Positions 1 to 61,132 of a stretch of 64,000 nucleotides of DNA are shown here, in pieces. The notes below the pieces were generated by a model that saw only the letters and a list, made by a program, of their open reading frames with translations, was not told the DNA's origin and made no database searches. Position 1 is the stretch's first letter. Every line of letters begins with the position of its first letter. The DNA is from Candidatus Parcubacteria bacterium. GTDB lineage: Bacteria; Patescibacteriota; Minisyncoccia; UBA6257; HR35. The DNA is taken from the NCBI GenBank assembly GCA_026004495.1, contig BPJG01000001.1:350858-414857 (forward strand). The letters are read 5' to 3'. Both the position numbers and the translations under genes were made by a program.

Positions 1-155
1 TTCTGCCCACCAGCCAAACAAGTTTTTTATTTTTTAAAAAGGCTTTAAATTTTTTACGAAATTCTATAATCTCTAAATCTCTTTTTGATTTTTCAGGGTA
101 AAAGTTAATTTTATCTTTCATTTTTTATATTTAATAATTTTAATAAAAATAATTT

Positions 156-1403
156 TTATAAACCACCCCCTGGTCTTTGTTGAAAGCCCTTTTCAATTTG
201 ACTGCTAATTTGTTGATAAATAGGAATAACTATTGAGACAGCTAAAAGACCAACTACCAAACCTACAAAAATTATTAATGCTGGCTCAATTAAGGTAGTT
301 AAATTCTTTACACTGAATTTAAATTCTTCTTCATAATAATTTTGCAAAATTTCCAAAACTTCAATTATCTTACCAGTTTCTGAGGCAATACCTAAAATGC
401 CGACAAAAAACTTAGGAAAAACAATTTCTTGGTTAATACTTTCATTGAAATTATAACCCTGTTCAATTCTTTTATTTACTCTAATTAAGGCTTCTTTAAT
501 TTCTGGATGATTAATAACATAAGTTGTTAATCCGATTGCCTTTGAAAGAGAAATACCACTTTTTAAAAGTGATTCCAAGATAAAACATAAAGTTCTTAAA
601 TTTAATGTTAATAAGATATTTTTAATAATTGGAATTTTAAAACTAATTTTTAGGATGAATTGTCTACCTAATTTAGAAGTAATTAGAAAAAAAAGGAAGA
701 TTATTGATAATAATAAAATTAAAAGTATTAATTTAATATTATTGCCAATAAAAATACCGGCATCTAAAATAATTTTAGAATAAAAAGGCAGTTCGGTTTC
801 CATTTGATTAACTAAATTAGCTAAACGAGGTATAACAAAGGTTGTAATTATTATGATTACTAAAAAAGTTATAATTAAAATAATCATTGGATAAATCAAC
901 ATAGAAATAATTTCTGATTTTATTTGCTTTTCTTTAGTAAGGTCTTCGGATAACTTTTCAAACGAATTAACTAAATTACCAGAAATTTCTCCTATTTTTA
1001 TTATTTCTATTTCAATAGGATTAAAGCTATTTTTATAATATTCGAAGGCTTCATAAATATGACCACCTTTTTCAATATAATAAATTAAAAACATCAAGAA
1101 TTCTTTTAAGCTTGAATATTTTATTGAATGGGTTAAAATTTTCAAACCTTGAATTAAGCTTGCACCAGATTTAAGTATTAAAGCTAAATTTCTATATAAA
1201 AGTATTTTATCTTTGAGGTTTATAACTGTTAAAAATTTAAACAACGAAATAAAAATTTTTATTTCTTTTTTTTCTTTAATTTTGATTAAGCTCAAGTTAT
1301 ATGATTTAAGATAGTTACTAATTTCTATTTCTGATTCACCCAATATTTTACCCTTATGAATTTTACCATTAGGATCAAAAGCTTCAAAATAATAAAATTT
1401 CAT
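156..1403 (-). CDS. pilC: Type IV pilus assembly platform protein PilC (GspF family)
   Basis: 415-aa polytopic membrane protein with the GspF/PilC family layout of two cytoplasmic repeats plus TM segments. It lies immediately downstream of the PilB ATPase gene on the same strand. Confidence 0.75.
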   Translation of the reverse strand: MKFYYFEAFDPNGKIHKGKILGESEIEISNYLKSYNLSLIKIKEKKEIKIFISLFKFLTVINLKDKILLYRNLALILKSGASLIQGLKILTHSIKYSSLKEFLMFLIYYIEKGGHIYEAFEYYKNSFNPIEIEIIKIGEISGNLVNSFEKLSEDLTKEKQIKSEIISMLIYPMIILIITFLVIIIITTFVIPRLANLVNQMETELPFYSKIILDAGIFIGNNIKLILLILLLSIIFLFFLITSKLGRQFILKISFKIPIIKNILLTLNLRTLCFILESLLKSGISLSKAIGLTTYVINHPEIKEALIRVNKRIEQGYNFNESINQEIVFPKFFVGILGIASETGKIIEVLEILQNYYEEEFKFSVKNLTTLIEPALIIFVGLVVGLLAVSIVIPIYQQISSQIEKGFQQRPGGGL

Positions 1404-1411
1404 TTTTATAT

Positions 1412-3121
1412 TTATTCTCTTATAACCCTTAAAATTTCTTCTAAGGTAGTAATACCAACGCTTAATTTATCCAACCCATCTTGAAACATAGTTTTATAAT
1501 TTTTATTTTTAAGTAAATTTTTGAATTCAACAAGATTAAAATCTCTTTTAGATAAATAATCAGCTAAATCATCATCAATAAAAAATAATTCAAATATTCC
1601 CGACCTACCATGATAACCTGAATAATTACATAAATCACAACCTTTGCCCTTAAAAACATAATGAGGAATATCATAATTATTGGCCTCTTCTTCGCTTAGA
1701 CCATCTTTAATTAATTGTTCTTTAATAGTTTCTAATTGATAAGTTTTTAATTCACTAGAATAAATGCAGTTTAGACATATTTTTCTTACCAATCTTTGAG
1801 CAATAACAACACTTAGGGTTGATGCTATTAAATATTTTGGAATATTTAAATCTAATAATCTTGGTATAGAAGAAATAGCATCATTAGTGTGGAGTGTTGA
1901 TAATATTAAATGACCCGTTAATGCAGCTTGAATAGCAATATCTGCCGTTTCATAATCTCTAATTTCTCCTACCATAATTATGTTAGGATCTTGCCTAAGT
2001 AATGATCTTAATCCTTCAGCAAATGTTAAATTTATTTTAGTGTTTACTTGCATTTGATTAATTCTATTAAGTTCATATTCAATTGGATCTTCAATAGTGC
2101 AAATATTTATCTCGGGAGAATTTAATATTTGCAAAATAGTATAAAGAGTAGTTGTTTTACCTGATCCAGTTGGCCCTGTAGAAATTATCATCCCATATGA
2201 TTTTTTAATTGCTTTAATTAATAAATTCTCATGGTATTCATTTAAACCTAAATCACTTAATGATGTTGGCTTAAAGGTAGATGCTAATAGCCTTAGTACG
2301 GCCTTTTCTCCATAGAGAGTTGGGATAATCGATACTCTAACATCGAATTCAAAATCACCTATTTTTGTTTTAAATCTTCCATCTTGAGGTCGAAAATGTT
2401 CATCTATTTGTAAGTTAGATAAAATTTTTATTCGAGCAATTAATGATGAATGAATAATTTTTGGTAATTTCATTATCTCTTTTAAAATTCCATCTACTCG
2501 AAATCTAATCAAGCTATATTCATAAAATATTTCTATATGGATATCGGAAGCATTTAAACCAACTGCATAATTTAAAATATTATTAATTATTTTTATAGCG
2601 GAAACATTTTGGGCTTCTTCGTTTAGGTTAGAAATATTTTCTATTTTAGAAACTTCAATTTTTAATAATTCTTCATATTCCTCTTTATAAATTTTTTGAT
2701 AGAATATTAAACCCAAACGCATTTCATCTTCTAAAATTAAATAAGGTTCTATTTTTTTATGAGTGAGGTTAGCTATTAAACTAATGGTTTCGTAATCAAC
2801 AGGATTAACCATAGCTAAATGTAATATTTCCCCATCATCTTTAAAGGGAATAATCTTTTTATCTAAGGCAATTTTTTCAGGTATAAGTTTTAAAACTTTA
2901 GTTGGGATAGATAGATTCTTTAAATTTATTCTTTTGACACCTAGATAATTACTTAAAATGTTAGCATAATATTCTTTATCAAGAAGTCTTTTATTGAAAA
3001 GAATATCCAAAATATTTAAATTTAATTTTTTTGCCTCTTGATAAACTTCTGTAAATGTATTTTCATCTATGAGATTATTATTTATTAATAATTTTTTTAA
3101 TTCCTCTATTGAGATAATCAT
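1412..3121 (-). CDS. pilB: Type IV pilus assembly ATPase PilB (GspE family)
   Basis: Walker A GPTGSGKTT, the conserved Asp box and His box, and a tetracysteine motif (CLNC...CDLC) typical of GspE/PilB secretion ATPases. Length is 569 aa. Confidence 0.85.
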   Translation of the reverse strand: MIISIEELKKLLINNNLIDENTFTEVYQEAKKLNLNILDILFNKRLLDKEYYANILSNYLGVKRINLKNLSIPTKVLKLIPEKIALDKKIIPFKDDGEILHLAMVNPVDYETISLIANLTHKKIEPYLILEDEMRLGLIFYQKIYKEEYEELLKIEVSKIENISNLNEEAQNVSAIKIINNILNYAVGLNASDIHIEIFYEYSLIRFRVDGILKEIMKLPKIIHSSLIARIKILSNLQIDEHFRPQDGRFKTKIGDFEFDVRVSIIPTLYGEKAVLRLLASTFKPTSLSDLGLNEYHENLLIKAIKKSYGMIISTGPTGSGKTTTLYTILQILNSPEINICTIEDPIEYELNRINQMQVNTKINLTFAEGLRSLLRQDPNIIMVGEIRDYETADIAIQAALTGHLILSTLHTNDAISSIPRLLDLNIPKYLIASTLSVVIAQRLVRKICLNCIYSSELKTYQLETIKEQLIKDGLSEEEANNYDIPHYVFKGKGCDLCNYSGYHGRSGIFELFFIDDDLADYLSKRDFNLVEFKNLLKNKNYKTMFQDGLDKLSVGITTLEEILRVIRE

Positions 3122-3729
3122 GGCATAAAATTAAAAAAATAATCTGTTTTTAAGATAATATTATTAATTGTCATAATATTAATTATTATAAGAAAAAAAC
3201 AAATGAATAACCAATAATCCTTAAGAGATATTTTTTCTGAAGTTGATAATTTTCTAAAAATTAGATTTTTAAGATGAAAAATGATAATAATTAAAAATCC
3301 CAGAGGTAAAATTAAAATATTTAAGGGGAAGGATAATAAAATTGAACTTAAAAATATTATTTTGTATTCTTCTAAATAAAATAATCCTTGTTTAAATATA
3401 AAATTAAGACTAATAACTATTAATAAATTAATCAAACCTGATATTAATCTTAAAAATAAATCTTTAAAATAATGGTAAGAAATATATCCCAAAAAATAAT
3501 TTATCGGCTGATAGGGTGGTAATAAAAATTTACCCAGTGGGTTTTTAAAGGCTAAATATTGCAAGTAAGAAATAATAATTGCTTGGATAAAAAAAATAAA
3601 AAGAATTAAAATTGAAATAATAACGTAATTAATCTTATCTTTTTTAAAAACAAACCTTAAAATTATTAAAAAAGAGCAAATAAAAAAACTAAAATAATAA
3701 TTAAAATTTTTTAATAATTCAATGATCAT
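3118..3729 (-). CDS. Hydrophobic integral membrane protein; a prepilin-peptidase role is possible but not supported by motifs
   Basis: 203 aa with multiple TM helices, co-oriented with pilB/pilC. I could not find the A24-peptidase catalytic Asp motifs, so the call rests on position only. Confidence 0.3.
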   Translation of the reverse strand: MIIELLKNFNYYFSFFICSFLIILRFVFKKDKINYVIISILILFIFFIQAIIISYLQYLAFKNPLGKFLLPPYQPINYFLGYISYHYFKDLFLRLISGLINLLIVISLNFIFKQGLFYLEEYKIIFLSSILLSFPLNILILPLGFLIIIIFHLKNLIFRKLSTSEKISLKDYWLFICFFLIIINIMTINNIILKTDYFFNFMP

Positions 3730-4246
3730 AAATAAAAATTTTAATAAATTTAAATCTAAAATTAATTATAAAAAGAAATTAAAATCAGCATTTACAATTG
3801 TAGAAATTGTAATTGTTCTTTTAATTTTTTTTACTATCGGAATTTTAATCTATTCTAATTTTTTTAAAATTTCATTAGATTATAACTATCTTAAAAATGA
3901 TTCTGAGTTAATAGTTCAAATTTTAAATGAAGCTAAACAAAAGGCAATTCTATTTGAGAACAGCTCTAATTGGTCTGTTTATTTTGAGAATTTAACTTCA
4001 TCTGATAATATTTATTTATTTTCTGGAGATAGTTTTTCTACCTCAGGTTTTTATAAAAAATATACCTTGAATTATTATAATAGATTTATTTATCCACCAG
4101 AAAATAGCACTACCAAAGTTGTTTTTAGTAAATTTTCTGGATATACCAGTACCAATACTCAAATTATCATAAAAAACATTAAAAGCAATAATACTTCTAC
4201 TATTATTATTAATTACTTCGGAAGTATTGACTATTCAATTAAATAA
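3722..4246 (+). CDS. Type IV pilin/pseudopilin-like protein with a prepilin-type N-terminal cleavage/methylation domain
   Basis: The N-terminus KKKLKSAFTIVEIVIVLLIF has a positively charged leader, then F-T-I-V-E with Glu at +5 and a hydrophobic helix (class III signal). It is divergent from and adjacent to the pil genes. Confidence 0.6.
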   Translation: MIINKNFNKFKSKINYKKKLKSAFTIVEIVIVLLIFFTIGILIYSNFFKISLDYNYLKNDSELIVQILNEAKQKAILFENSSNWSVYFENLTSSDNIYLFSGDSFSTSGFYKKYTLNYYNRFIYPPENSTTKVVFSKFSGYTSTNTQIIIKNIKSNNTSTIIINYFGSIDYSIK

Positions 4247-4263
4247 TTTTATAATTTTAATTA

Positions 4264-4992
4264 ATGCATAACAATAGCTCATTTAAAAAAGAGAATTTTT
4301 TTCTTATTATTTTAGGAATAATAGTAATTTTTTTCTTAATTTATTTTTTAGGTAGCTTTAATATAAATAAAGTTAAAATTGGTAATTTTGGTAATAAAGA
4401 AAACCTAGATAGAATAAAAGAAACCAGCGTTGATATAAATACAATCTTAGGCAATTTACCTCCATTGGGCAATCCTAACGCTCCTATAAAAATAGTTGAG
4501 TTTGGTGACTTTCATTGTCCTTACTGCACTCAAGTACCCGAATTAATCTACAAGCCATTACAACAATATATCGATAATAATTTAGTCGCAATTTATTTTA
4601 GAGATTTTCCTCTTGATCAGATACATCCCTTTTCTCGAAATGTTCATTTGGCAAGTAGATGTGCTAATGAGCAAGGAAAATATTGGGATTTTCATAAAAA
4701 AGCCTTTGAAGATTTTAATAATGGCTTAGGCCAAAAAACTGGAGATAAAGATTATTTATTTAATTTAGCAAAAAATCTTAATTTAGATGAAAATAAATTT
4801 AAAGAATGTTATGAAACCAAAAAATATGAAAATGATATAAATAACGATTATATTCAAGGAACTCAATTAGGAATTCAAGGAACTCCAGGGTTTTTTGTTA
4901 ATAATTTATTTATTGCTGGTCTTGATGTAGAATCAATAAATAAGGCTATCAATTTATTATTAGGAAATAATTTAAGTAATAGTAATAATTAA
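4264..4992 (+). CDS. DsbA-like thiol:disulfide oxidoreductase (thioredoxin fold), membrane-anchored
   Basis: N-terminal TM helix and a CPYC active-site motif within FGDFHCPYC, a thioredoxin/DsbA-family signature. It is located next to the pilin gene. Confidence 0.65.
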   Translation: MHNNSSFKKENFFLIILGIIVIFFLIYFLGSFNINKVKIGNFGNKENLDRIKETSVDINTILGNLPPLGNPNAPIKIVEFGDFHCPYCTQVPELIYKPLQQYIDNNLVAIYFRDFPLDQIHPFSRNVHLASRCANEQGKYWDFHKKAFEDFNNGLGQKTGDKDYLFNLAKNLNLDENKFKECYETKKYENDINNDYIQGTQLGIQGTPGFFVNNLFIAGLDVESINKAINLLLGNNLSNSNN

Positions 4993-5040
4993 TAAGAATT
5001 CAATTATAAATTCTAATAAATTAAAAAATTTAAATATAAC

Positions 5041-5277
5041 ATGAAAAAAGTAATAATTTATACAACAAGTTGGTGTCCATTTTGTGAGGCTACAAAAGAG
5101 TATCTTCATCAAAAAGGTATTCCTTATGAAGAAAAAAATGTTGAATTAGATCTTCAAGCTCGAGATGAAATGGTAGAAAAATCAGGCCAATTAGGTGTAC
5201 CAGTTTTAGATATTGATGGCAAAATAATAATTGGTTATTCTCCTGAGGAAATAGATAATGCTTTATTAGAACAATAA
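5041..5277 (+). CDS. Glutaredoxin-like small redox protein (NrdH/YruB-like)
   Basis: 78 aa with a CPFC active site (TSWCPFCEATKEYL) in a glutaredoxin fold. It also has a GVP motif and a C-terminal GYSP motif. Confidence 0.6.
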   Translation: MKKVIIYTTSWCPFCEATKEYLHQKGIPYEEKNVELDLQARDEMVEKSGQLGVPVLDIDGKIIIGYSPEEIDNALLEQ

Positions 5278-5293
5278 AAATTTTTAAAAATAA

Positions 5294-5746
5294 ATGGTGA
5301 ATATTGTTAATCGAGGTATTGATTATCGTTATAAAATATTAGATAAATTTGAAGCCGGTATTAATCTTAAGGGCTTTGAAGTGAAATCCTTAAGAAATAA
5401 TAGGGGCAGTCTAAATGGTAGTTATATTTCCATTAAATATGGTGAAGTTTATCTTATAAATTTTCAATTACCGCCTTATCAACCTAAAAACGTTCCCAAA
5501 GATTATGATCCCAATAGACCTCGAAAGTTATTATTAAAAAAGAATGAAATAATTTATTTAACTACTAAAATAAAAGAGAAAGGATTAACAATAATTCCCT
5601 TAAGAATTTATTCTAAAAATAATTTAATTAAAATAGAAATTGCCTTAGCTAAAGGATTAAAGAAGTTTGAAAAGAGAGAAAAAATAAAAGAAAAAGAATT
5701 TAAAAAAATTAAAAACAAGATTGAAAAAACAAGAATAATTATTTAA
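5294..5746 (+). CDS. smpB: SsrA-binding protein SmpB
   Basis: 150 aa with the SmpB-family N-terminal core and a basic C-terminal tail. It sits directly upstream of a tmRNA gene. Confidence 0.8.
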   Translation: MVNIVNRGIDYRYKILDKFEAGINLKGFEVKSLRNNRGSLNGSYISIKYGEVYLINFQLPPYQPKNVPKDYDPNRPRKLLLKKNEIIYLTTKIKEKGLTIIPLRIYSKNNLIKIEIALAKGLKKFEKREKIKEKEFKKIKNKIEKTRIII

Positions 5747-5774
5747 AATTTAAAATACAAATAAAATAAAATTA

Positions 5775-6112
5775 GGGGATGAATTGGATTTCGAGGCGGA
5801 AAAGAGATAAAGAAGGCTAACGGTAAAAGCCCGCCTTAGTGGTTATAAAAAGTGCAAACCAACCTCTTGCCTACGCTGTTAGTTAAAGTAGGGCTCTGGA
5901 GAAAGTTTGTTGGATTCTTTCTTCAGGGTGATAAATAATCCAACTTGAATTAAAGAAGTTGACTAGCTTCTTTAATTGACACCAATAATAGTCTATCTCC
6001 AATTCATTTTGTAGGTTTTAAAGAATTGGGGTGAAAATTAAAAAAACCTACTATGTTAGTAGAATTCTTTATCAATTTTCCGTCGACGGGGGTTCGATTC
6101 CCCCCATCTCCA
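5775..6112 (+). ncRNA. ssrA: tmRNA (ssrA), standard one-piece form
   Basis: The 5' end GGGGATGAATTGGATTTCGAGGCGG and the 3' end GGGGGTTCGATTCCCCCCATCTCCA give a tRNA-Ala-like acceptor/T-arm with a G3:U70 pair. A candidate tag ORF runs from GCA at 5854 to TAA at 5884-5886 and would encode ANQPLAYAVS. It is adjacent to smpB, and no CCA is encoded. Confidence 0.8.
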
Positions 6113-6144
6113 AATTTATTTTGGAGTTTTAATTTTAAATTATT

Positions 6145-8145
6145 TTATTGAGGAGAATAAAGAATTAAACCAGTAGTTGTACTAATTATAATTTCTATTG
6201 GTCTTTGGCTAACATCATATCTTCTCCCATATTGATCGTTATAGATATCAAAATTATACCCAGGTGGTTCACTATTATTTGATAATATATAAGTAAATGT
6301 TGAGTTTATTGATGTATTGACTAAAACTAATCCATTTTCATAATTTCTTTTATACAAAGCTCCATTATTAAAATTAGAAGTTGAAGCTATTACTAATTCA
6401 TCTATACTATTTACTGGCAAAGGATTTCCCAGGGGTAAATATAAAGATTGGGGATAACATTGAGGCGTATTATAACTAGATTCATCTGAAATACTATAAT
6501 AATTATTTTTATTATTGGTTAGATAAAAAGATGAAACTATATAATTAGTGAGCTTATCATTATTATTACAATTTTGGTTGAAATTAATCTTGGTAATTGA
6601 AATAATAATATCATAAACCTTATTTTCAATTAAGGTTTTAAATTGTTTATGTATACTTTGAGGATTATTGTTAAAATTTAATGAAAGTTTTTCATTCAGA
6701 TATCCATTAGTAAATTTAATTTGAGTATACCAATTTCCCTCGCTATTAGGTTCATCGGCGTTGGCATAGATATGGTAGCCTAAATTTCCAAAATAATTAA
6801 TATAGGATGCCAATGATTTCTTAAGAATATTAAGAAATATTGGTTGATATATTTGTCTAGCTAAAATTGGATTACTGTAACCAGCAACTTCAAATAAATC
6901 AAATCCTAAAAAATCAGTTCTTAACAAAGAATCACCTTGAGATAATTTATAATACCTTAAAAAAGTTTTAGAAATAATATCAGCTGATTGAGAGAACAAT
7001 TTTATTCTTAAATGCCTTAGATGATAAGGCCAGGCATTATTTTGATTATTTGTATTTTCGATTAGTTCGGGATAAAGTGAAGTTGGATGAATTCTTTTTA
7101 TAATATTATTTAAATCTGAGCTACTGGTAGCAATACAAATTCTATCTATATACTCTAAAATATTTCCATCACTCCAGCTACGACAATATAAAGGATCATA
7201 ATCAAAATTATGAACACCTCTTAATAATATTGTCGAAAGAAAATATGTTACCCTTTTAAAATTATTATTTAAATATTTAACAATTAAAGAAATATTGTCT
7301 TCTTCTCCCCACCAAGCATCAGCCTCTAAATATAATTTAATAAAATCGATATTATATCTATTGCAATTGTTATATGAGCAATATTGATTTATTTCAGCAA
7401 ATTTTAGAGAAGAAATAGGTTTACTTGGGATGGTTAGGCAATTATTATTCCTATAAGCATAAAATCTAAAATCGTCTAGCCATATATTTCCTAGATATGG
7501 TTGGGTTGTAGAGTTAAATCTTATATAAATATAATTATCAATTCTTAATATTGAATTTGTTGTTGGTAGAGTAGCTGTTGCTATAATTAATTGCCAATCA
7601 TTATTTAAGTTAAAATCTCTATTTATAATATTTAAAATAGAATTTGTGGTACTAGCATTAACAATTAGATTAACTTTTATATTGTTAGGATTATCAGTTT
7701 TAATCATAAATTTAATTTCTATAACATCACCTGTCTTAGGATAATAATTTTTAGTTTCATTGCTGATATAAGGATAATCGGTATAGAGGCTATTTAACAA
7801 TCTAAAGGCAGTATTGAAATTTTGATTTGCTCTTTTATTAATTTTAGCCCTTAAACTACCTCTACTAAAATTGTTATTATAATAATTATTTCTATCTATA
7901 TCTAATTTAACATAAACTCCGTTTGTTTTAGATAAATGCCAACCTGCTGGTTTGCCTATGAGAGTATCTAAATAAAATTTTTTAGCTTCATTATTATCTA
8001 TTATTTCAAATTCTCCTATGCCTCCAGTGAAATTAAGGCATTGGTTATTATTTTGAGCAAAAATAAAGTAATTGCTGGGAATTAATAATAAGGATAAGAA
8101 AAAATAAAATATAGATAGCTTAAACATATATATTAATTTACTCAA
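6145..8145 (-). CDS. Secreted protein of unknown function (signal peptide; possible N-terminal carbohydrate-binding-like beta-sandwich)
   Basis: 666 aa with an N-terminal hydrophobic signal sequence, Asn-rich composition, and no recognisable catalytic motif. It lies immediately downstream of the giant surface-protein gene, overlapping it by 8 nt. Confidence 0.5.
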   Translation of the reverse strand: MSKLIYMFKLSIFYFFLSLLLIPSNYFIFAQNNNQCLNFTGGIGEFEIIDNNEAKKFYLDTLIGKPAGWHLSKTNGVYVKLDIDRNNYYNNNFSRGSLRAKINKRANQNFNTAFRLLNSLYTDYPYISNETKNYYPKTGDVIEIKFMIKTDNPNNIKVNLIVNASTTNSILNIINRDFNLNNDWQLIIATATLPTTNSILRIDNYIYIRFNSTTQPYLGNIWLDDFRFYAYRNNNCLTIPSKPISSLKFAEINQYCSYNNCNRYNIDFIKLYLEADAWWGEEDNISLIVKYLNNNFKRVTYFLSTILLRGVHNFDYDPLYCRSWSDGNILEYIDRICIATSSSDLNNIIKRIHPTSLYPELIENTNNQNNAWPYHLRHLRIKLFSQSADIISKTFLRYYKLSQGDSLLRTDFLGFDLFEVAGYSNPILARQIYQPIFLNILKKSLASYINYFGNLGYHIYANADEPNSEGNWYTQIKFTNGYLNEKLSLNFNNNPQSIHKQFKTLIENKVYDIIISITKINFNQNCNNNDKLTNYIVSSFYLTNNKNNYYSISDESSYNTPQCYPQSLYLPLGNPLPVNSIDELVIASTSNFNNGALYKRNYENGLVLVNTSINSTFTYILSNNSEPPGYNFDIYNDQYGRRYDVSQRPIEIIISTTTGLILYSPQ

Positions 8146-11100
8146 ATGTACAATCTAATATTTTATTAAATTCTTTAATAGTATTTACTCCCATAATACC
8201 TGTTGGTTTTTTAACTTTAAGGTATAATCTTTGAAACTTCTTTACTGAATTAATTGTTCTAATATTATATTTAGTTATTTCTTTATTTTTTGAACCAGGG
8301 CCAGTTTTAGCGATTAAAGTTTTATTATTTGAATTTAATATAATCTGGAGATATTTAATATTATTATTAGTAATTCCTGGTCTTATCTTTTTAAGGGGAA
8401 ATCTAAAATTACTTGGTATTTTTGATTTAATATAATCAAAATCAAAATCTTTATATTTAATGCATATATTATCCTCTTGAGTTTTTTCAAACTCTTCTGA
8501 ACTGGTAGTTGTTTGTAAATTTTGAGCTAAAAGATTTAATAATAAAAGTAAGTTATTTTGTTCTTGGTTTGCAGTTTCTCCATCTTCACCATCTCCACCA
8601 CTACCTCCACCACCTCCACTACTACCACCTCCACCACCTCCACTACTACTACTATCATTGTCAACAATATTAACATTAACATTACTTATTTGAATATTAT
8701 TATAGTTATTGTCTGTTGAAGAAGCAGAATGGCTAATAACTACACTATGATTACCTTCAGCTATACTATCATTAACTGCAGTTACATTAATAGTTTGATT
8801 AATATTCCAATTAGTTGGAGTAAAGACTAAGGTAGAAGTATTAGTTTGAATTTGAGACGAATTATAGGTTAACCTAATTATTACATTACTTGTTGGAGCT
8901 GAAGTTAACCTAAGATTGTAACTACTACCCTCTCCTCCTTCAGTAACAGTGATACTTGTTGGATTAACACTTACTCCACTACTATCATTATCAACAATAT
9001 TAACATTAACATTACTTATTTGAATATTATTATAGTTATTGTCTGTTGAAGAAGCAGAATGGCTAATAACTACAGTATGATTACCTTCAGCTATACTATC
9101 ATTAACTGCAGTTACATTAATAGTTTGATTAATATTCCAATTAGTTGGAGTAAAGACTAAGGTAGAAGTATTAGTTTGAATTTGAGACGAATTATAGGTT
9201 AACCTAATTATTACATTACTTGTTGGAGCTGAAGTTAACCTAAGATTGTAACTACTACCCTCTCCTCCTTCAGTAACAGTGATACTTGTTGGATTAACAC
9301 TTACTCCATTACTATCATTATCAACAATATTAACATTAACATTACTTATTTGAATATTATTATAGTTATTGTCTGTTGAAGAAGCAGAATGGCTAATAAC
9401 TACAGTATGATTACCTTCAGCTATACTATCATTAACTGCAGTTACATTAATAGTTTGATTAATATTCCAATTAGTTGGAGTAAAGACTAAGGTAGAAGTA
9501 TTAGTTTGAATTTGAGACGAATTATAGGTTAACCTAATTATTACATTACTTGTTGGAGCTGAAGTTAACCTAAGATTGTAACTACTACCCTCTCCTCCTT
9601 CAGTAACAGTGATACTTGTTGGATTAACACTTACTCCATTACTATCATTATCAACAATATTAACATTAACATTACTTATTTGAATATTATTATAGTTATT
9701 GTCTGTTGAAGAAGCAGAATGGCTAATAACTACAGTATGATTACCTTCAGCTATACTATCATTAACTGCAGTTACATTAATAGTTTGATTAATATTCCAA
9801 TTAGTTGGAGTAAAGACTAAGGTAGAAGTATTAGTTTGAATTTGAGACGAATTATAGGTTAACCTAATTATTACATTACTTGTTGGAGCTGAAGTTAACC
9901 TAAGATTGTAACTACTACCCTCTCCTCCTTCAGTAACAGTGATACTTGTTGGATTAACACTTACTCCATTACTATCATTATCAACAATATTAACATTAAC
10001 ATTACTTATTTGAATATTATTATAGTTATTGTCTGTTGAAGAAGCAGAATGGCTAATAACTACAGTATGATTACCTTCAGCTATACTATCATTAACTGCA
10101 GTTACATTAATAGTTTGATTAATATTCCAATTAGTTGGAGTAAAGACTAAGGTAGAAGTATTAGTTTGAATTTGAGACGAATTATAGGTTAACCTAATTA
10201 TTACATTACTTGTTGGAGCTGAAGTTAACCTAAGATTGTAACTACTACCCTCTCCTCCTTCAGTAACAGTGATACTTGTTGGATTAACACTTACTCCAGG
10301 ATTATTACTTATTCCTGTAGGATTATAATCAAAAAAGACCAAGTTCTTATTTGAAAAATCATAGTTATTTATCGAACCGTAGGATATGCTTTCAAAATTT
10401 CCTCCTAAATATAATTTTCTTGAGCTAGTACTAAAAGCTATTGAATAAATATTAAAATCTGGGAAAATTGCATCATAAGTAAAATTTATTTCTGAGGGCG
10501 TGTAGGTGGCAATTAAAAATCCTAATTGACCCCTGGTGTAAAGTTCATCAAAAAATCCTGAAACAAAAAGTATATTATTTTGACTATCATTTTTAATTTT
10601 AATTACAGGTAAATTTGGATATTCCATATAATTTAAATTTACTGGTGAAAGATTATTTTTATTTAAAGTGGCTAAATATTTATTAAATTTACCACCAACG
10701 AACAATAGATTATCTTCTGGATCTATGCTAATCGTATTAACTAAATCATTTATATTGGATTGAGCTAATAATATAGGACTAGAGGTTGCTCCTATAGAAG
10801 CCAAATAAGAAACATTTTGATTTAATACTCTATTAAATCTGCCGCCAATATATAAAACTCCAGTTGATTCATCAATAACACAATCATTAACTACATCATT
10901 AACAATACCGCTATTTCCATTTATAAAATTATTATCTAAAGTACCAGAACTAGCATTTATTTTTGCTACATATTTATATTTATTCTCATTATTTATTTTA
11001 GAAAAATAGCCACATAAAAATAGTTTATTATTAATCTTATCTAACGTTAAGGCTGAGATAAAATCTCCTGTTGTTGTTGAAAAGGTATAGTTGAAATCAT

Positions 11101-12640
11101 TTATTATGGTATTATTAGTGGTATTAATTGCTGCAAAAAATATTCTATCTTGGTTATTAATTTTTGTAAATGGTCCAGCTATGTATAAATAATTATTATT
11201 AGGGTTATAAAGAAGAACATCAACTGGGTTATTTGGTTCAATATTAAAATTAGTAATTAAGTTTAAATTTCTATCAAAGGCAGCCAAATATTTTTTATAA
11301 ACTCCATTATAGGAATAAAATCTCCCACCAATAAATAAATTACCATTATTATCTAATTTCAAAACATTAACTCTATCGCTTAGTTTTAAATCAGAAATAG
11401 AGGTTATTAAATTTCCAGAGGTTGCATTGATAGCTCTGAAATAATACCTATCACTTGCACTTGTGGCATTAAATGATCCACTAACATATAAGATTCCATT
11501 ATTTTTGTTTAAAGCTAAAGATAGAACTGAATCAACATCAGAATTGTCTCGATTTAGCGAAGAAGAAAATGTATTTATCATCGAACCATTTATAGCATTA
11601 AGGGCAGCAACATAAACAGAAGGAGTAGCAAACCTTCCGCCTATATATAAATAATCATCATTAGGGTTATTAGGGGTATTAAAGTCATTATATTCTAAAG
11701 CCAAAACAACATAATCTAATGAATTGCCAGCTGGATTAAAGCCAGTTATTATACTACCATTTGTTGAAGAAACAGCAGCTAAATATCTTTTAGGTGAAGT
11801 AAAATAACCTCCTACATATAATATATTAGAATCAGGAGATAATAAAATAGTCCAAATGACATCATTAAATGAATTATTGGAATTAAAACTTTCATTTACT
11901 GTTGAGGTTGAATTAGTTGAAAAATTTATAGCAGCTAAAAATTTTTTATTGGAAATAATATTGGTTAAATTATTTTTTATCCAGATAAATTGTCCTCCAA
12001 GATATAAAGTATTAGTATTAGGATGAACTGCTAAAGAAAATACGTAGTCCTCTAGTTCAAAATTAAAGGTATTAACTAAGCGGGGATTATTTAAATCAGA
12101 AATATCAATAGCTGATAAATACTTTCTTGTTAAATTATTTACTGACTGGAATGCTCCTCCAATAAAAAGAATATTATTTTTTAAAGCTAAAGCGTAAACA
12201 GTATCATCAATATTTAAGTTAAAATTACAATTTACTCTTCCTGATTGATCTATATAGGCTAATTTTCTTACCTCACAATTACCTACTTTGAAAAAATCAC
12301 CACCAATAAACCAACCATTGTTATATGGTATAGCTGTCCAAACAGAACCTTCTATTTTATCAATTAAATCAAAAGTTGTATTCTGAGATGTTCTTAAAAT
12401 AAATCCATTTCCCCTATAAGGACCTAAATAAGTAAAATTACCTCCTATATAAACTTTATCATTAGCAACTTCAATAGTATTTATTGAACCGTTAGGCACC
12501 CAATTTAAATTAAACTTTTGAGAAGTTAAATTAGCCCAAGTTAAATTAAATAAAAATATATTAAATAAAAAGAAAATAAAAATCATTATAAAAAACTTCG
12601 TTAAATTTTTTAATTTATTTAAAAATTTTTTTAATTTCAT
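8138..12640 (-). CDS. Giant cell-wall-anchored surface protein: signal peptide, beta-propeller (delta-60-like) repeats, 5 x 110-aa tandem Ig-like repeats, Gly/Ser linker, C-terminal peptidoglycan-binding domain
   Basis: 1500 aa. The N-terminal signal is MKLKKFLNKLKNLTKFFIMIFIFFLF. About 12 recurrences of LY[IV]GG[xF]F over residues 60-700 (LYLGGQF, LYVGGYF, LYIGGRF, LFIGGRF and others) indicate beta-propeller blades. Five perfect 110-aa repeats follow (GVSVNPTSITVTEGGEGSSYNLRL...VTAVNDSIAEGNHTVVISHSA...), then a poly-Gly/Ser linker. The C-terminal ~90 aa match the PG_binding_1 pattern (IKYLQIILN...TGPGS...TKYNIRTINSVKKFQ...TGIMGVNTIKEF). Confidence 0.8.
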   Translation of the reverse strand: MKLKKFLNKLKNLTKFFIMIFIFFLFNIFLFNLTWANLTSQKFNLNWVPNGSINTIEVANDKVYIGGNFTYLGPYRGNGFILRTSQNTTFDLIDKIEGSVWTAIPYNNGWFIGGDFFKVGNCEVRKLAYIDQSGRVNCNFNLNIDDTVYALALKNNILFIGGAFQSVNNLTRKYLSAIDISDLNNPRLVNTFNFELEDYVFSLAVHPNTNTLYLGGQFIWIKNNLTNIISNKKFLAAINFSTNSTSTVNESFNSNNSFNDVIWTILLSPDSNILYVGGYFTSPKRYLAAVSSTNGSIITGFNPAGNSLDYVVLALEYNDFNTPNNPNDDYLYIGGRFATPSVYVAALNAINGSMINTFSSSLNRDNSDVDSVLSLALNKNNGILYVSGSFNATSASDRYYFRAINATSGNLITSISDLKLSDRVNVLKLDNNGNLFIGGRFYSYNGVYKKYLAAFDRNLNLITNFNIEPNNPVDVLLYNPNNNYLYIAGPFTKINNQDRIFFAAINTTNNTIINDFNYTFSTTTGDFISALTLDKINNKLFLCGYFSKINNENKYKYVAKINASSGTLDNNFINGNSGIVNDVVNDCVIDESTGVLYIGGRFNRVLNQNVSYLASIGATSSPILLAQSNINDLVNTISIDPEDNLLFVGGKFNKYLATLNKNNLSPVNLNYMEYPNLPVIKIKNDSQNNILFVSGFFDELYTRGQLGFLIATYTPSEINFTYDAIFPDFNIYSIAFSTSSRKLYLGGNFESISYGSINNYDFSNKNLVFFDYNPTGISNNPGVSVNPTSITVTEGGEGSSYNLRLTSAPTSNVIIRLTYNSSQIQTNTSTLVFTPTNWNINQTINVTAVNDSIAEGNHTVVISHSASSTDNNYNNIQISNVNVNIVDNDSNGVSVNPTSITVTEGGEGSSYNLRLTSAPTSNVIIRLTYNSSQIQTNTSTLVFTPTNWNINQTINVTAVNDSIAEGNHTVVISHSASSTDNNYNNIQISNVNVNIVDNDSNGVSVNPTSITVTEGGEGSSYNLRLTSAPTSNVIIRLTYNSSQIQTNTSTLVFTPTNWNINQTINVTAVNDSIAEGNHTVVISHSASSTDNNYNNIQISNVNVNIVDNDSNGVSVNPTSITVTEGGEGSSYNLRLTSAPTSNVIIRLTYNSSQIQTNTSTLVFTPTNWNINQTINVTAVNDSIAEGNHTVVISHSASSTDNNYNNIQISNVNVNIVDNDSSGVSVNPTSITVTEGGEGSSYNLRLTSAPTSNVIIRLTYNSSQIQTNTSTLVFTPTNWNINQTINVTAVNDSIAEGNHSVVISHSASSTDNNYNNIQISNVNVNIVDNDSSSSGGGGGGSSGGGGGSGGDGEDGETANQEQNNLLLLLNLLAQNLQTTTSSEEFEKTQEDNICIKYKDFDFDYIKSKIPSNFRFPLKKIRPGITNNNIKYLQIILNSNNKTLIAKTGPGSKNKEITKYNIRTINSVKKFQRLYLKVKKPTGIMGVNTIKEFNKILDCTFE
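8648..10297 (-). repeat. Five head-to-tail tandem repeats of 330 bp inside the giant surface-protein gene
   Basis: The 10-mer tcaacaatat recurs at 8661, 8991, 9321, 9651 and 9981 within long identical blocks, giving an exact period of 330 bp. Copies differ at only a few positions (for example ccact versus ccatt). Confidence 0.9.
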
Positions 12641-14454: not shown

Positions 14455-14570
14455 GCCTTGCGGTACCTACTCTCGCGCCTAAATTGGCACTACCATCGGC
14501 ACTTAGCCGTTTCACTTGCCTGTTCGGAATGGAAAGGAGTGGTTCCAGCTAAGTTATGCAACCACAAGGC
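14455..14570 (-). rRNA. rrf: 5S ribosomal RNA
   Basis: The reverse complement reads GCCTTGTGG...CCGAACAGGCAAGTGAAACGGCTAAGTGCCGATGGTAGTG...GCGAGAGTAGGTACCGCAAGGC. Universal 5S loop motifs (CCGAAC, GTGAAAC, CCGATGGTAGTG, GAGAGTAGG) are present and the helix I termini pair. Length is about 116 nt. Confidence 0.85.
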
Positions 14571-27440: not shown

Positions 27441-28700
27441 TTAATAAACAAAAATTTTATTAACTATTAAATTATTATCGTCATAAAGTTTTATTTCGTC
27501 ATACCTTTGTTTAGAAAAAGATTCATAAATGGGTATAAAAATTATCCAGTCCTTAAAATAAAAATCATTATCATTTTTTTTATTTTGATAGCAACCTCGA
27601 TAAGTAAAGTTTTCCTCAAAAAATTTATAACATTGCGAATCATAGATAATTTTTTCCCAGTCAGTATTTTTAGGCCCACTACAAGATATTTTAGATAGAA
27701 TATTTAAGCAATTATCACTTAAATTATATTTTGTTTTTAAAGAAAATAAATCAAATTTTGTAAATCTATTACAAGGAAAGTAATATTGCCTTAGATAATC
27801 TTTTAGTTCCCATCTTAATTGAGTTAAGTAATTAAAGCATTTATTAATTTTAAAATTAAAACCCAAAGGAGATTCAAGGGGATAAGGATATTTAAAGTTT
27901 GGGGGAATAAAATTCGCAGTGGTAGCGTATAGGGGATAGATAATTATTCTTTCGTTTGGTTTTAAGATAATATCTTCAAGTTTTTTATCTAAATTAGGAT
28001 TTACATCTTTAACTGCCTGAGTTATAGTAAAATTAACCTTTGAAGATATAAGCTTCCAATTAGTGACATTAATTGAATTCCTACTTTTATTGGTAAGAGT
28101 TATTAAATTTCTAGCACTATTTATTTTAATATCAATATCTTTATAGTAATTGGAAATAGAAACCATAATATAAGCAATAGCTGGAGTTGGATCAATTTCA
28201 TTTTTTTTATTAATAGCCCTAACATAAAGTTTATAAGTGTTTAATCCTTTAGGTAGAAATATCTTTTTATGCTTACCATAAATAATTTGCCAATTTTTAT
28301 TAAGGGGCTCGATTTTATATTGAAAGAAAATTTTTTCCGAAGGATTTTTTTTATCTATACCCGATACCAATAAATCAAATAAATTATCTTCTATAAATGA
28401 AAATATTTTGGGCGAAATTAAAAATGTCTCTATATCGGCATTGTTTTTATAATAATTCTTTTTTTTTGTTTGGGCATAAATATATTTTGTTTTTAAAAAT
28501 GGAATTTTATTTTCTTTTTTTTGTTTAAAAAATGTTCCTTCAGGTAAAATACTCTTTTCAGCTGGAGAAACATCTTTTTTTATTTTTAATTGAGGGATGT
28601 AGTTTAATCTAAATTGAAGATAGTATATTATACCTGATAAAGTTAAAAGAATAATAATTATAGCTTGAATTAAACTTTCTAATTGAGCTTTATTTTTCAT
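27441..28700 (-). CDS. Membrane-anchored hypothetical protein with a probable lamin-tail-domain (LTD)-like segment and a Cys-rich C-terminal region
   Basis: 419 aa with an N-terminal TM helix. The segment IKINSARNLITLTNKSRNSINVTNWKLISSKVNFTI...LKPNERIIIYP resembles the LTD pattern (ExVxLxN...GWxL...pgxxvvv). The C-terminal third has 8 Cys. Confidence 0.4.
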   Translation of the reverse strand: MKNKAQLESLIQAIIIILLTLSGIIYYLQFRLNYIPQLKIKKDVSPAEKSILPEGTFFKQKKENKIPFLKTKYIYAQTKKKNYYKNNADIETFLISPKIFSFIEDNLFDLLVSGIDKKNPSEKIFFQYKIEPLNKNWQIIYGKHKKIFLPKGLNTYKLYVRAINKKNEIDPTPAIAYIMVSISNYYKDIDIKINSARNLITLTNKSRNSINVTNWKLISSKVNFTITQAVKDVNPNLDKKLEDIILKPNERIIIYPLYATTANFIPPNFKYPYPLESPLGFNFKINKCFNYLTQLRWELKDYLRQYYFPCNRFTKFDLFSLKTKYNLSDNCLNILSKISCSGPKNTDWEKIIYDSQCYKFFEENFTYRGCYQNKKNDNDFYFKDWIIFIPIYESFSKQRYDEIKLYDDNNLIVNKIFVY

Positions 28701-37925: not shown

Positions 37926-38363
37926 TTATTTACTAAAATAAATAATTATTTTATCTACTCGGGGAGAAGAAAATTCATTACAACTAGCTAATAATATTTT
38001 ATATTTCAAATATCTTATTCCTTGATGGATTTTATTGTTTAAAGAATAAATTTGATAAGGATTAATATCTATATAATCATTAGAAAAATCAGGACCATAA
38101 AATATCCAAGGTCCACTACTTGAAATTGAACTAGCTATTTGAAAACCAACGAAATGATTGTTATCTCTTTCACCTTGCCAACTTATTTTTGTAAGATTGT
38201 AAGAATTTCCTAAATCAAAAATTGGAGATTCTAAATAACCAGACGAGATAGCATTATTTAAATTACAATTATTTTGAGAATCAACATAATTATAAATAGC
38301 CAAACTAATAACGAAAACTAAAAAAATCTTTAATTTTTTTAAACCAGTCATTTTTACTTTCAT
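37926..38363 (-). CDS. Small secreted hypothetical protein
   Basis: 145 aa with a signal peptide (KIFLVFVISLAIYNYVDSQN). It overlaps the ftsA 3' end. Confidence 0.4.
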   Translation of the reverse strand: MKVKMTGLKKLKIFLVFVISLAIYNYVDSQNNCNLNNAISSGYLESPIFDLGNSYNLTKISWQGERDNNHFVGFQIASSISSSGPWIFYGPDFSNDYIDINPYQIYSLNNKIHQGIRYLKYKILLASCNEFSSPRVDKIIIYFSK

Positions 38364-39447
38364 AATTATTTTCTCTTGTAATTAAAGCACAGCCGGCTGA
38401 AGCTGAATATTTTAAAATATCTTCATCTTTTTCAAAGATTTTTAATTCATCTTTACAAAGCTTTAAATGAATATCAAAAAGATTTTTTAATAAATTATCT
38501 AAATCAATAATCTTGGCAAAACTGCCAGTCAAGATAATTCCTGAAGGTAATTTATAATATGATTTTATTTCTTTTAAATATTGTTTTAAATTATCTCTTT
38601 CGAAATAGTCTTTAATTTTCTTTTCAATAAATTTTTTTATTTTTATATTTTTATTTTTATCTTTAATTAGATGATTATTAAAAAAATCTATTTTTATTTT
38701 TTCAGCTTCTTCAACATCAGCCTTAAGATAAATAGCCAAATCTTGAGTTAAGTTTTCACCTCCAAAATTAAATGATTTATAATGAATTAATTTACCATAT
38801 TGAAAAATAGCTAAAGTTGTAATTTCTGCTCCTAGATCTAAAATTCCAACACCTATTTCCTTATCTTTTTTATTTAAACATATTTTACTAGCAGCATAAA
38901 AAGAAGGACAAAATTTTATATTATTTATTTTTAATTCATTAAATATATGTCTAATTTTATCTAAAATATTTTTTTGACAACTAATAAAAAAAACTTCGAC
39001 ATCTAATCTTCGACCAGCAAAACCTAAAGGATCTCTTATTTCTTGATTATTATCTAAAATAAATTTTATAGATTCTTCTAATAAGATTTCTTGATTATTA
39101 ATTATTAAAGAAGTACGAGCAGTGTTTATTGCTTTAGTAATATCATTTTTGGTTACATTATTTTCAATAAAGGTATATCCTTTCTGGGTATAATTTTGAA
39201 AATTAGGCAAGTTAAGACAAACTGTAAGTTCATTAATTTTATTAATATTAAAACTATTTATCGTATTGTATATAAGGTTTTCAAGTAAATCAACAAGTGA
39301 TTCTATTTCTAAAATTTCTCCCCCCTTTAAGTATTCATTTTTAATGCTTTGATTATGAATGATAAATTTTCCAAAATTATCTTCTTCTAAAACACTTAAT
39401 TTAATTTCATGATGACCTAAATCTAAACCAAAATATAAATCCCTCAT
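38305..39447 (-). CDS. ftsA: Cell division protein FtsA (actin-like ATPase)
   Basis: Phosphate-1 motif FGLDLGHHEIK and a series of FtsA-like blocks (EIRDPLGFAGRRLDVEVFFISC; GVGILDLGAEITTLAIFQYG; FGGENLTQDLA). No ftsZ is adjacent. Confidence 0.6.
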   Translation of the reverse strand: MRDLYFGLDLGHHEIKLSVLEEDNFGKFIIHNQSIKNEYLKGGEILEIESLVDLLENLIYNTINSFNINKINELTVCLNLPNFQNYTQKGYTFIENNVTKNDITKAINTARTSLIINNQEILLEESIKFILDNNQEIRDPLGFAGRRLDVEVFFISCQKNILDKIRHIFNELKINNIKFCPSFYAASKICLNKKDKEIGVGILDLGAEITTLAIFQYGKLIHYKSFNFGGENLTQDLAIYLKADVEEAEKIKIDFFNNHLIKDKNKNIKIKKFIEKKIKDYFERDNLKQYLKEIKSYYKLPSGIILTGSFAKIIDLDNLLKNLFDIHLKLCKDELKIFEKDEDILKYSASAGCALITRENNYESKNDWFKKIKDFFSFRY

Positions 39448-44875: not shown

Positions 44876-45565
44876 CTATCCTTGAGGATAAAAATTAGTA
44901 CTTGTTGATCCAGGCAAAAGTGTTTTGTCTGGTCCTGATTCATAAATATAGGGATTATTACCTCCATCATTTTGTTCTTCTGTTAATCTACCCTCAAGAT
45001 TAGCATTCAATTCATAACTCATCTCTGGTGATTTGCAGGTAAAAGCATAATAAAAAGATCCTGAAAGATTACTATTTCTTGGATCTAAGGGTAAGCTTGT
45101 TAAATTAATATATGTTGATGTTCCTATTGGAACAGGTAACCAACCTGGCGGATTGTTTGTTGTACTAGTAGCTGTAGTTATTGAATTAGTAGCTCTTGCT
45201 CCTGTAAATGGAGAGGTGGTACCAATAGATCCTGTTTCATTAGCTGAATAAAAAATTGTTGGAGTTGAACCACCAAGACATCCTCCATTAAAACTATTTA
45301 TTGTTCCACCAGTATTTAAAGTTGTACTTGAAGGAACAAATACTATATCTGTTCCTTTTTGGGTTATATCGGCGATATATAAATCAATCGCCCTGCTTAA
45401 ATTATTTAAATCAGCAATACGACGACTATCTCTCATGTTGACAAAAATTTGTTGAGGCTTAATAATAGTTATCAAAATTGCTGCTAGTGTAGCTATTATT
45501 GCTAAAACAATTATTAATTCAATTAAAGTAAATCCTATTTTTTTATCTTTGTAATTAATATGCAT
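44876..45565 (-). CDS. Type IV pilin (prepilin with class III signal), Thr/Ser/Gly-rich C-terminal region
   Basis: The N-terminus is MHINYKDKKIG|FTLIELIIVLAIIATLAAILI. It has a basic leader, Gly at -1, Phe at +1, Glu at +5 and a hydrophobic alpha-1 helix. Confidence 0.8.
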   Translation of the reverse strand: MHINYKDKKIGFTLIELIIVLAIIATLAAILITIIKPQQIFVNMRDSRRIADLNNLSRAIDLYIADITQKGTDIVFVPSSTTLNTGGTINSFNGGCLGGSTPTIFYSANETGSIGTTSPFTGARATNSITTATSTTNNPPGWLPVPIGTSTYINLTSLPLDPRNSNLSGSFYYAFTCKSPEMSYELNANLEGRLTEEQNDGGNNPYIYESGPDKTLLPGSTSTNFYPQG

Positions 45566-45716: not shown

Positions 45717-46112
45717 CTAAGAGATCCTTAAGTTAGAAAATTCTTTTATCTTAGATACTAATTCATCTAAAGAAAGACCTGCTTTCACAAAGTATTCTTT
45801 AACTCCTAATTTCTTTCCTCTTTGAATATCTTCTGATTGTCCTAAGTTGGAAATTATAAAAACTGGAATATCTTTCAAGTTAACATCCTTATTAATTTCT
45901 TCCAATATATAAAAACCACTTTTTTTAGGTAAAATTATATCTAATAATATTAAATCAGGTTTTTCGATAACTATTTTATTTAATGCTTCCTCTCCGTCGC
46001 TAGCAGTTAGGATATCAAAACCCTCATTTTTTATTTTTTTTTCTAGTAAAGTTCTTAAAAATTTATCATCTTCTACTATTAAAATTTTCATTATTAAACT
46101 TGTCATTATCAT
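45717..46112 (-). CDS. Stand-alone response regulator receiver domain (CheY-like)
   Basis: 131 aa containing KILIVEDDKFLRTLL, LLDIILPKKSGF and a conserved Lys (KAG). There is no output domain, and no histidine kinase gene in the window. Confidence 0.8.
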   Translation of the reverse strand: MIMTSLIMKILIVEDDKFLRTLLEKKIKNEGFDILTASDGEEALNKIVIEKPDLILLDIILPKKSGFYILEEINKDVNLKDIPVFIISNLGQSEDIQRGKKLGVKEYFVKAGLSLDELVSKIKEFSNLRIS

Positions 46113-46261
46113 TAATATTTTCTATTAAATCAAGCAATTAAAATAAAAAATTTTCTAATTAAACATTTAATATTCATTAAAGGTTGTTCATTAAAAGGTT
46201 TTTTATTATCCGGGTTAAGTTCAGCTATTTAAAGAATTATTTTTTCTTATTTTAAATAGAA

Positions 46262-47775
<1,514 letters not shown>

Positions 47776-47954
47776 AGAACTTAACCCGGATAATAAAAAA
47801 TCTTTAATTTAAAATTCTCAATTTATAGAGTACAATAAAATCAATTATCACCTATTTAGATTAAAATTTTTAAGAACAAAAAATAATTCTAGTTATAAAA
47901 ATTATAAGAATATTTTTAAAAAATTCAAGTTAGATTAATTTTTAAATTTAATTT

Positions 47955-60722: not shown

Positions 60723-61132
60723 TTGCCTTGTTATTAATTATTTTTTTAGATGTTTTATTTAAATTACTTTTCAATAAATTAATTTTTTTAGGTGTAAGTT
60801 TTTCCTTAATTTATTTTTTAAATAATAATAAAAATTTCTATTTATCTTATGTTATTTTTTCTTTTTTAAATGATTTAATTTTGCTACTCCCAATAGGTTT
60901 TACTGGATTTTATTTGGGGATAATTCTAATTTTAATAACTATTATTAATAAATTTATATCTTTTGATGAAGAAATAAATTCATATGTAGTTTTAGTGATT
61001 TCCTTGCTAATATTTTTTATTTTTATTTGGTACTATTATCTTGGTTTTAATTTTAATTTTTTATTCTTTAAATTTTTAATAATTAACTTGATAATATTAA
61101 TGATTTTAAACTTTATTATTAAGAACTTTTAA
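60719..61132 (+). CDS. mreD: Rod shape-determining protein MreD-like small membrane protein
   Basis: 137-aa polytopic membrane protein located between mreC and the PBP2 gene. The assignment is by position and topology only. Confidence 0.45.
   Translation: MIALLLIIFLDVLFKLLFNKLIFLGVSFSLIYFLNNNKNFYLSYVIFSFLNDLILLLPIGFTGFYLGIILILITIINKFISFDEEINSYVVLVISLLIFFIFIWYYYLGFNFNFLFFKFLIINLIILMILNFIIKNF

Follow-up and report, generated by a model that had tools for sequence, protein, structure and literature searches.

A type IV pilus core and a DsbA-glutaredoxin operon side by side in a Candidatus Parcubacteria bacterium, with a putative PilD-derived membrane protein

The question raised by this locus is whether a set of thiol-disulfide redox genes serves the type IV pilus genes next to which it lies. 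The locus occupies positions 156-5277 of a 64-kb stretch of DNA (the window) from a Candidatus Parcubacteria bacterium. The genes of PilC, PilB and a small membrane protein of 203 amino acids (aa), all on the minus strand, diverge there from a gene encoding a protein with a prepilin signal, and this gene is followed by those of a membrane-anchored thioredoxin-fold protein with a CPYC motif and of a glutaredoxin-like protein (Grx) with a CPFC motif. An earlier note on this DNA had described this arrangement correctly, and had read it as a device for the dedicated oxidative folding of the pilin. Our analysis, which covered the window and loci fetched from relatives, leads us to favour, with somewhat better than even confidence, an account in which the pilus core and a housekeeping thiol-redox operon are two separate functional units lying side by side, the 203-aa protein being a paralogue of the prepilin peptidase PilD. 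The over-specific reading of a pilus-dedicated DsbA is corrected in this way. For the ultrasmall Patescibacteria, type IV pili are believed to play a central part in attachment to hosts and in DNA uptake.

The first unit would be the core of a Parcubacteria-type, single-membrane type IV pilus. Its platform protein is a PilC-type protein of 415 aa (156-1403, minus strand) with two T2SSF domains (PF00482, E=1.4e-44), which aligns end to end with the GspF/PilC models of NCBIfam and scores under their equivalog cut-offs. It is adjoined by a PilB-type assembly ATPase of 569 aa (1412-3121, minus strand), in which T2SSE (PF00437, E=6e-120, 400.7 bits) and MshEN (PF05157, 49 bits) were found together with a Walker A motif (GPTGSGKT) and, at residues 449 and 495, a pair of CxxC motifs; such a two-CxxC tetracysteine zinc motif is typical of assembly ATPases and absent from retraction ATPases of the PilT type. 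Compared to TIGR02538, PilB yielded a full-length but divergent alignment of 524.1 bits, which does not reach the equivalog cut-off of 675.65. It is closest to PilB of Patescibacteria/Parcubacteria genomes, and the nearest public relatives, with PilB 80-87% identical to that of the window, are Parcubacteria assembled from metagenomes, of which several carry the label of hot-spring bins. Within the window there is no second ATPase of the PilB/PilT type and no canonical A24 peptidase, the latter having been sought also with a hidden Markov model (HMM) built from five true PilD sequences. The protein at 38305-39447 was considered as a PilM and ruled out, as it has the SHS2 insert of FtsA. The ensemble resembles the type IV pili of single-membrane bacteria and Patescibacteria, such as Saccharibacteria TM7x and Streptococcus sanguinis, in its PilB with MshEN and zinc-binding Cys motifs, its PilC, its pilins with class III signals, the lack of a secretin and the CheY-like receiver beside a pilin; it differs from them in that PilT, PilM/N/O and a canonical PilD are absent from the 64-kb window, and in that CheY and one pilin lie 41 kb away.

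Two pilins were found, and no other protein of the window carries a class III signal. The one beside the redox genes is a minor pilin or pseudopilin of 174 aa (3722-4246, plus strand). Its leader reads KKLKSA/FTIVEIVIVLLIF, and the signal (KKLKSA/FTIVE) displays a basic leader, a small residue at -1 (Ala, not Gly), Phe at +1 and Glu at +5, followed by a hydrophobic helix. The N_methyl score of this protein, 13.2 bits, is under the gathering score of 21.2; in its family N_methyl was found in 12 of 21 members (E<=0.01) and GspH, weakly, in two, and a search with the profile of the family finds the alpha-1 helix of pilins with PDB structures (E=7e-8). It contains no Cys, and the same is true of all of its 10 closest orthologues. 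In other Parcubacteria the orthologues sit downstream of PilC. The genes of the minor pilin and of the 203-aa protein diverge from start codons that overlap, at 3722-3729, inside the palindrome ATGATCAT, while in relatives this junction ranges from -30 to +22 bp (overlaps or gaps). As no intergenic region separates the two genes, the promoter of each must lie within the other.

The second is a major-type pilin of 229 aa (44876-45565, minus strand; MHINYKDKKIG/FTLIEL), with an N_methyl score of 30.4 bits (cut-off 21.2) and a globular part rich in Thr, Ser and Gly. As the earlier note had it, this pilin lies beside a stand-alone CheY-like receiver (45717-46112, minus strand; Response_reg, E=2.7e-21). 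It holds one pair of cysteines, C96 and C177, and nearly all of its Patescibacteria homologues have an even number of Cys. The prediction of paired C-terminal cysteines in the pilins is therefore not borne out by the adjacent pilin, which has none, and is borne out only in part by the distal one, since its pair, 81 residues apart, is long-range and does not form a classical C-terminal D-region loop.

The surroundings of these genes were surveyed in two samples, namely 80 PilB loci from distinct GTDB species (PilB 38-55% identical to that of the window) and 87 metagenome loci with a member of the 203-aa membrane-protein family, located by a back-translated motif scan. The usual order in the PilB loci is CheY, pilin, (membrane protein), PilB, PilC, minor pilin. 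Homologues of the distal pilin in relatives are encoded just before the membrane-protein gene and PilB, and in 38 of the 87 metagenome loci the membrane-protein gene comes after a CheY-pilin pair. CheY and the distal pilin are the 5' end of this canonical pilus cluster, here 41 kb from PilB-PilC. The canonical order of CheY, major pilin, PilD-derived protein, PilB, PilC and minor pilin would thus have been rearranged in the lineage of the window, CheY and the major pilin having been moved off and the minor pilin now being divergent and upstream of the membrane-protein gene. Directly after the 16S rRNA gene, and co-directional with it, come CheY and the major pilin.

The 203-aa protein (3118-3729, minus strand) belongs to an unannotated family with the motifs QYxxW, LLPPY..YF..Y and FYxEE...P. 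It starts straight with a transmembrane helix and has about six helices in total. No Pfam or NCBIfam model matched it, and no Pfam model matched any of the 81 family members scanned; a profile search of PDB sequences returned only a chance match to LptF (E=2.5), and a Foldseek comparison of its predicted model with the PDB returned no match. The direct comparison with the Peptidase_A24 HMM, which the earlier note had proposed, was likewise negative; profile methods, on the other hand, reveal a degenerate relative of PilD. The HMM of the family matches three Pfam-verified prepilin peptidases in the fetched loci (E=1e-8 to 1e-11), the reciprocal search with the A24 HMM matches a member of the family, and hhalign of the family against five true A24 proteins gave a probability of 95.3% (E=2e-8) over the C-terminal half. 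The protein was found to be homologous to the A24 core and to have a fold like that of FlaK. The Asp of GxGD aligns to E121, which is Glu in 76 and Asp in one of 77 sequences, the motif being FYxEE and not GxGD; the invariant P135 aligns to the A24 Pro located 14 residues downstream of the GxGD Asp. No counterpart of the first catalytic Asp (D...IPD) was seen, no column in the first 60 positions of the family exceeding 14% Asp/Glu, and the N-terminal A24_N_bact zinc-finger/methyltransferase domain is absent, as is any CxxC.

On the strength of these alignments, the 203-aa protein appears to be a PilD-derived paralogue and the representative of a previously undescribed family. The family is widespread: an exhaustive profile search yielded about 355 representative clusters at 50% identity, mostly of 190-210 aa, and in many Parcubacteria its gene lies between those of the major pilin and PilB. 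Its neighbours in the 87 metagenome loci include a pilin in 72, PilB in 57, PilC in 38 and CheY in 38. In this respect these organisms differ from TM7x, which encodes a normal PilD (PMC11623550). Unlike the prepilin peptidases and FlaK (A24, GxGD), the family has Glu in place of Asp and an extracytoplasmic motif of its own (QYxxW...LLPPY..YF..Y), and it can coexist with a true PilD. Such coexistence is found on one contig (L142, 1-12850), where a family member is accompanied by a complete PilD, in which neither the two Asp nor the zinc-finger domain is missing; consequently, the family cannot be regarded as simply replacing PilD. The genes of this contig are arranged as CheY, pilin, 203-aa family member, PilB, PilC, minor pilin, three small open reading frames with a single helix each, a second PilB, PilT, a second PilC, a pilin and the complete PilD, which amounts to a double pilus locus.

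As judged from its sequence, the 203-aa protein is most likely a peptidase of non-canonical type, or one that has become inactive, which handles prepilins at the platform where pili are assembled; having lost the zinc-finger/methyltransferase domain and the first Asp, it would bind or handle them where PilB and PilC meet. A fuller proposal, to which we give slightly less than an even chance, is that the family is a core component of the Parcubacteria pilus that has kept one acidic residue (Glu) and gained the extracytoplasmic LLPPY motif, and that it acts either as a pseudo-peptidase at PilB-PilC or as a glutamate-based peptidase. It would then be either the first pseudo-enzyme derived from a GxGD protease to be linked with the assembly of pili, or a prepilin peptidase whose active site is without precedent, and either possibility bears on the processing of pilins in these bacteria.

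A more specific alternative is that the protein is a working prepilin peptidase, the site of which is formed by Glu121, perhaps together with Glu120, or by the two Glu121 residues of a dimer. Its place beside a pilin and PilB, where pilD is often found, would suit this function, and a canonical A24 gene is missing not only from the window but also from nearly all of the loci that bear the family. Every sequence has an acidic residue where GxGD has its Asp, the Pro that comes 14 residues later has been retained, and the cleavage motifs of the pilins in these loci are still perfect. However, both catalytic Asp residues are essential in TcpJ and PilD, and the family shows no second conserved acidic residue, as described above for its first 60 positions; moreover, the Foldseek search brought up no protease, and the L142 organism has a complete PilD at its disposal. 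We consider a working peptidase unlikely for these reasons. Two other identities were rejected: a glutamate protease of the CAAX/Rce1 type, suggested by the EE motif and by His residues, since these His are not conserved (H86 in 50 of 81 sequences, H152 in close relatives only) and the homology is to A24, and VKOR or DsbB, since there is no CxxC.

The second unit would be a housekeeping operon, in which an exported and anchored DsbA introduces disulfides into secreted proteins. Its first gene (4264-4992, plus strand) encodes a DsbA/BdbD-like thiol-disulfide oxidoreductase of 242 aa that matches Thioredoxin_4 (E=1e-24, 88 bits; cut-off 23.2) and DSBA (E=5e-17, 62.9 bits; cut-off 25.6). The CPYC motif lies at residues 85-88, a second Cys pair is present and all four Cys are conserved; a Thr-Pro loop (GTPGFF) can be read from the sequence. 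The protein is predicted to be exported and membrane-anchored, by a single N-terminal hydrophobic segment that comes after Lys residues and is kept in 11 homologues. The solved structures nearest to it are those of C. diphtheriae DsbA, Wolbachia alpha-DsbA1 and BdbD. It is the only DsbA-like gene of the window. No partner that could re-oxidise it (DsbB, BdbC or VKOR) was seen: there is no polytopic CxxC protein in the window, neither the window nor any fetched locus has a membrane electron carrier (VKOR, DsbB or CcdA), and neither VKOR nor DsbB occurs near the DsbA-Grx pairs of the relatives.

The glutaredoxin-like redoxin that follows (5041-5277, plus strand) has 78 aa and is YruB/NrdH-like: it scores 101.2 bits against TIGR02196 (YruB family), above the cut-off of 88.55, and its neighbours in the PDB are Grx and NrdH proteins. 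Its N-terminus, MKKVIIYTTSWCPFC, carries no export signal; the CPFC motif is at residues 12-15, and since a CxxC that begins at residue 12 leaves no room for a signal, the protein is cytoplasmic. The idea that both thioredoxin-fold proteins act outside the cytoplasm is accordingly upheld, as a prediction, for DsbA with its anchor and fails for Grx. In relatives, the start of the Grx gene overlaps the stop of DsbA (ATGA) and a gene for thioredoxin reductase (TrxR) follows. The same succession was seen among the relatives (L090-L093, L097, L098 and L109-L218) and at 4264-5277 of the window: every gene for an exported DsbA has one for a cytoplasmic Grx behind it, usually with the ATGA overlap, and ancestrally a TrxR gene comes next. 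Judging by this gene order, DsbA-Grx(-TrxR) is a self-contained operon and an invariant unit. Grx is ancestrally paired with thioredoxin reductase, belongs to a cytoplasmic, TrxR-dependent system and plays no extracellular part; at the window locus the TrxR gene has been swapped for smpB. In the subclade of the window, smpB occupies the slot that thioredoxin reductase holds behind the Grx gene in relatives.

With its 78 residues, its CPFC motif, its YruB score and the TrxR-like gene next to it in relatives, Grx resembles the NrdH/YruB redoxins that are reduced by TrxR, and it differs from them in having smpB for a neighbour in the window and in its constant coupling to an exported DsbA. This coupling of an exported oxidase to a cytoplasmic Grx-TrxR pair is unusual, and it could hint at a novel way of balancing or re-oxidising the extracellular DsbA.

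The DsbA of this operon is, as far as sequence can tell, probably an oxidase of general use outside the cytoplasm, and the major pilin would be one of its substrates. Several other secreted proteins encoded in the window hold 6-8 Cys, including two large surface proteins at 6145-12640, and DsbA would most likely oxidise many such Cys-containing proteins, the major pilin and these two included. It would not be dedicated to the adjacent minor pilin, which offers it no Cys.

That DsbA lies beside pilus genes is peculiar to one lineage. The 80 PilB loci were searched up to 8 kb from PilB by tblastn and, for DsbA, also with a DsbA-family HMM, and not one of them has a homologue of DsbA, Grx or SmpB there. 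Among the 87 metagenome loci, DsbA adjoins the membrane-protein gene in nine, all of them from the lineage of the window, and is missing in the other 78. In other Parcubacteria (L093, L097 and L098) DsbA, Grx and TrxR, with ATGA overlaps, stand beside lepA or unrelated genes, and pilus genes are absent nearby. The association was thus not found beyond close relatives in either sample, nor in three outgroups. Within the lineage, the block of AspRS, PilC, PilB and membrane protein facing minor pilin, DsbA and Grx is kept in the subclade of the window (PilB 80-87% identical). A second subclade (B; PilB about 52%, DsbA 43-50% identical) keeps it as well, with a TrxR-like gene and not SmpB after Grx. 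In a third (L112-type, PilB 67% identical), which came from the metagenome loci, the minor pilin is Cys-free like that of the window, and both the stop of the minor pilin gene with the start of DsbA and the stop of DsbA with the start of Grx overlap by 4 bp.

Several of these observations weigh against a complete separation of the two units. The arrangement in which minor pilin, DsbA and Grx face membrane protein, PilB and PilC has been kept across subclades whose PilB proteins are only 52-67% identical to that of the window, and its junction persists while the genes beyond Grx vary (SmpB or TrxR-L19). The 4-bp overlap of the minor pilin and DsbA genes makes a single operon in one subclade, and the minor pilin of subclade B ends in C-x14-C. 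Taken together, these points favour some selected co-expression of DsbA with the pilus genes.

The strongest form of such a link is the one put forward in the earlier note, according to which DsbA and Grx are a redox pair whose dedicated task is to fold the module's pilins oxidatively. There are precedents for it: ComGC of B. subtilis needs BdbDC, and the toxin-coregulated pilus of V. cholerae needs TcpG. The retained adjacency, the single operon in one subclade, the conserved Cys pair of the major pilin and the C-x14-C of the subclade-B minor pilins all speak for it, and a role in pilin folding was proposed by Méheust et al. 2019 (PMC6744442) for an oxidoreductase family that is enriched in these bacteria and frequently has VKOR as a neighbour. 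The DsbA of the window shares with BdbD/BdbC-ComGC of B. subtilis, TcpG of V. cholerae, MdbA/VKOR of Actinomyces and fam000318 of Méheust et al. 2019 an anchored thioredoxin fold, a CxxC and a Thr-Pro loop, and, as with other pilus-linked DsbA oxidases, a pilin with a Cys pair is available to it as a substrate. In contrast to them, it has no BdbC, DsbB or VKOR nearby, is coupled translationally to a cytoplasmic Grx and TrxR, and adjoins a pilin that is free of Cys. The DsbA-Grx operon, furthermore, occurs elsewhere without pilus genes, pilus clusters do without DsbA in 80 of 80 and in 78 of 87 loci, and the window encodes other Cys-rich secreted proteins. A dedicated pair consequently strikes us as improbable. 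The idea that links pili with DsbA is already published, and what is seen here is a loose association confined to one lineage; a weaker version of the earlier claim, in which the stable adjacency and the gene overlaps reflect selected co-expression in that lineage, is plausible.

At the other extreme, the juxtaposition could be pure neutral synteny, with DsbA and Grx transcribed from a promoter of their own only and bearing no special tie to piliation. A candidate for this promoter is a sigma-70-like site at 4227-4255 (plus strand; TTGACT-17-TATAAT), located 9 bp before the start codon of DsbA. It is the top match in bases 1-6300, agreeing at 11 of 12 positions as a pattern match only, and both of its hexamers are kept in five related genomes, though the -35 lies in coding sequence. 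Across the region, promoter-like sites are not commoner than expected by chance, and the candidate is for this reason only a lead. Neutral synteny also draws on AspRS, which has no pilus function and is conserved equally on the other flank of the block, and on the region from RecA to AspRS, which is collinear in the closest relatives; the equal conservation of AspRS leaves room for this explanation. It is opposed by the L112-type subclade, where the 4-bp overlap between the gene of the minor pilin and that of DsbA implies co-transcription, by the lack of a terminator between the two genes, and by the survival of the junction while the far flank changes. We regard wholly neutral synteny as doubtful, and return to the two separate units, perhaps with some co-expression in this lineage, as the account that we favour.

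The remainder of the window provides some further observations. Behind the Grx gene, SmpB (5294-5746, plus strand; Pfam SmpB, E=3.6e-46) is directly followed on its 3' side by tmRNA (5775-6113, plus strand; ARAGORN and Rfam RF00023, 109.6 bits; tag peptide DTNNSLSPIHFVGFKELG), the two spanning 5294-6113. Of the two large secreted proteins mentioned above, the one at 8138-12640 (minus strand) has 1500 aa, including a unit of about 104 aa (GVSVNPTSITVTEGG...VNIVDNDS) that occurs in five near-identical tandem copies, and a linker rich in Gly and Ser, and the one that comes after it (6145-8145, minus strand) has 666 aa and 8 Cys. Both are kept in close relatives, and precomputed annotation gives only faint matches to Rax2 and DUF5122. 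They are probably surface adhesins and likely substrates of DsbA.

The G+C content of the window is about 25%, and its sole spike (0.425) is caused by the 16S rRNA gene (46255-47777). The rRNA operon is unlinked, as the 5S rRNA gene (14455-14569) lies 32 kb from that of 16S and no 23S gene occurs within the window. Lamin-tail (LTD) domains were noted in two secreted proteins (48770-50308 and 27441-28700), one above the cut-off (53.5 bits) and the other weak; the protein at 48770-50308 has a long, Asn-rich region of low complexity. Finally, two MreB-like paralogues, 4 kb apart (54134-55138 and 58911-59939), are accompanied by MreC-like and PBP2-like genes at 59991-62929, all of these being recognised by eye from the translations only.

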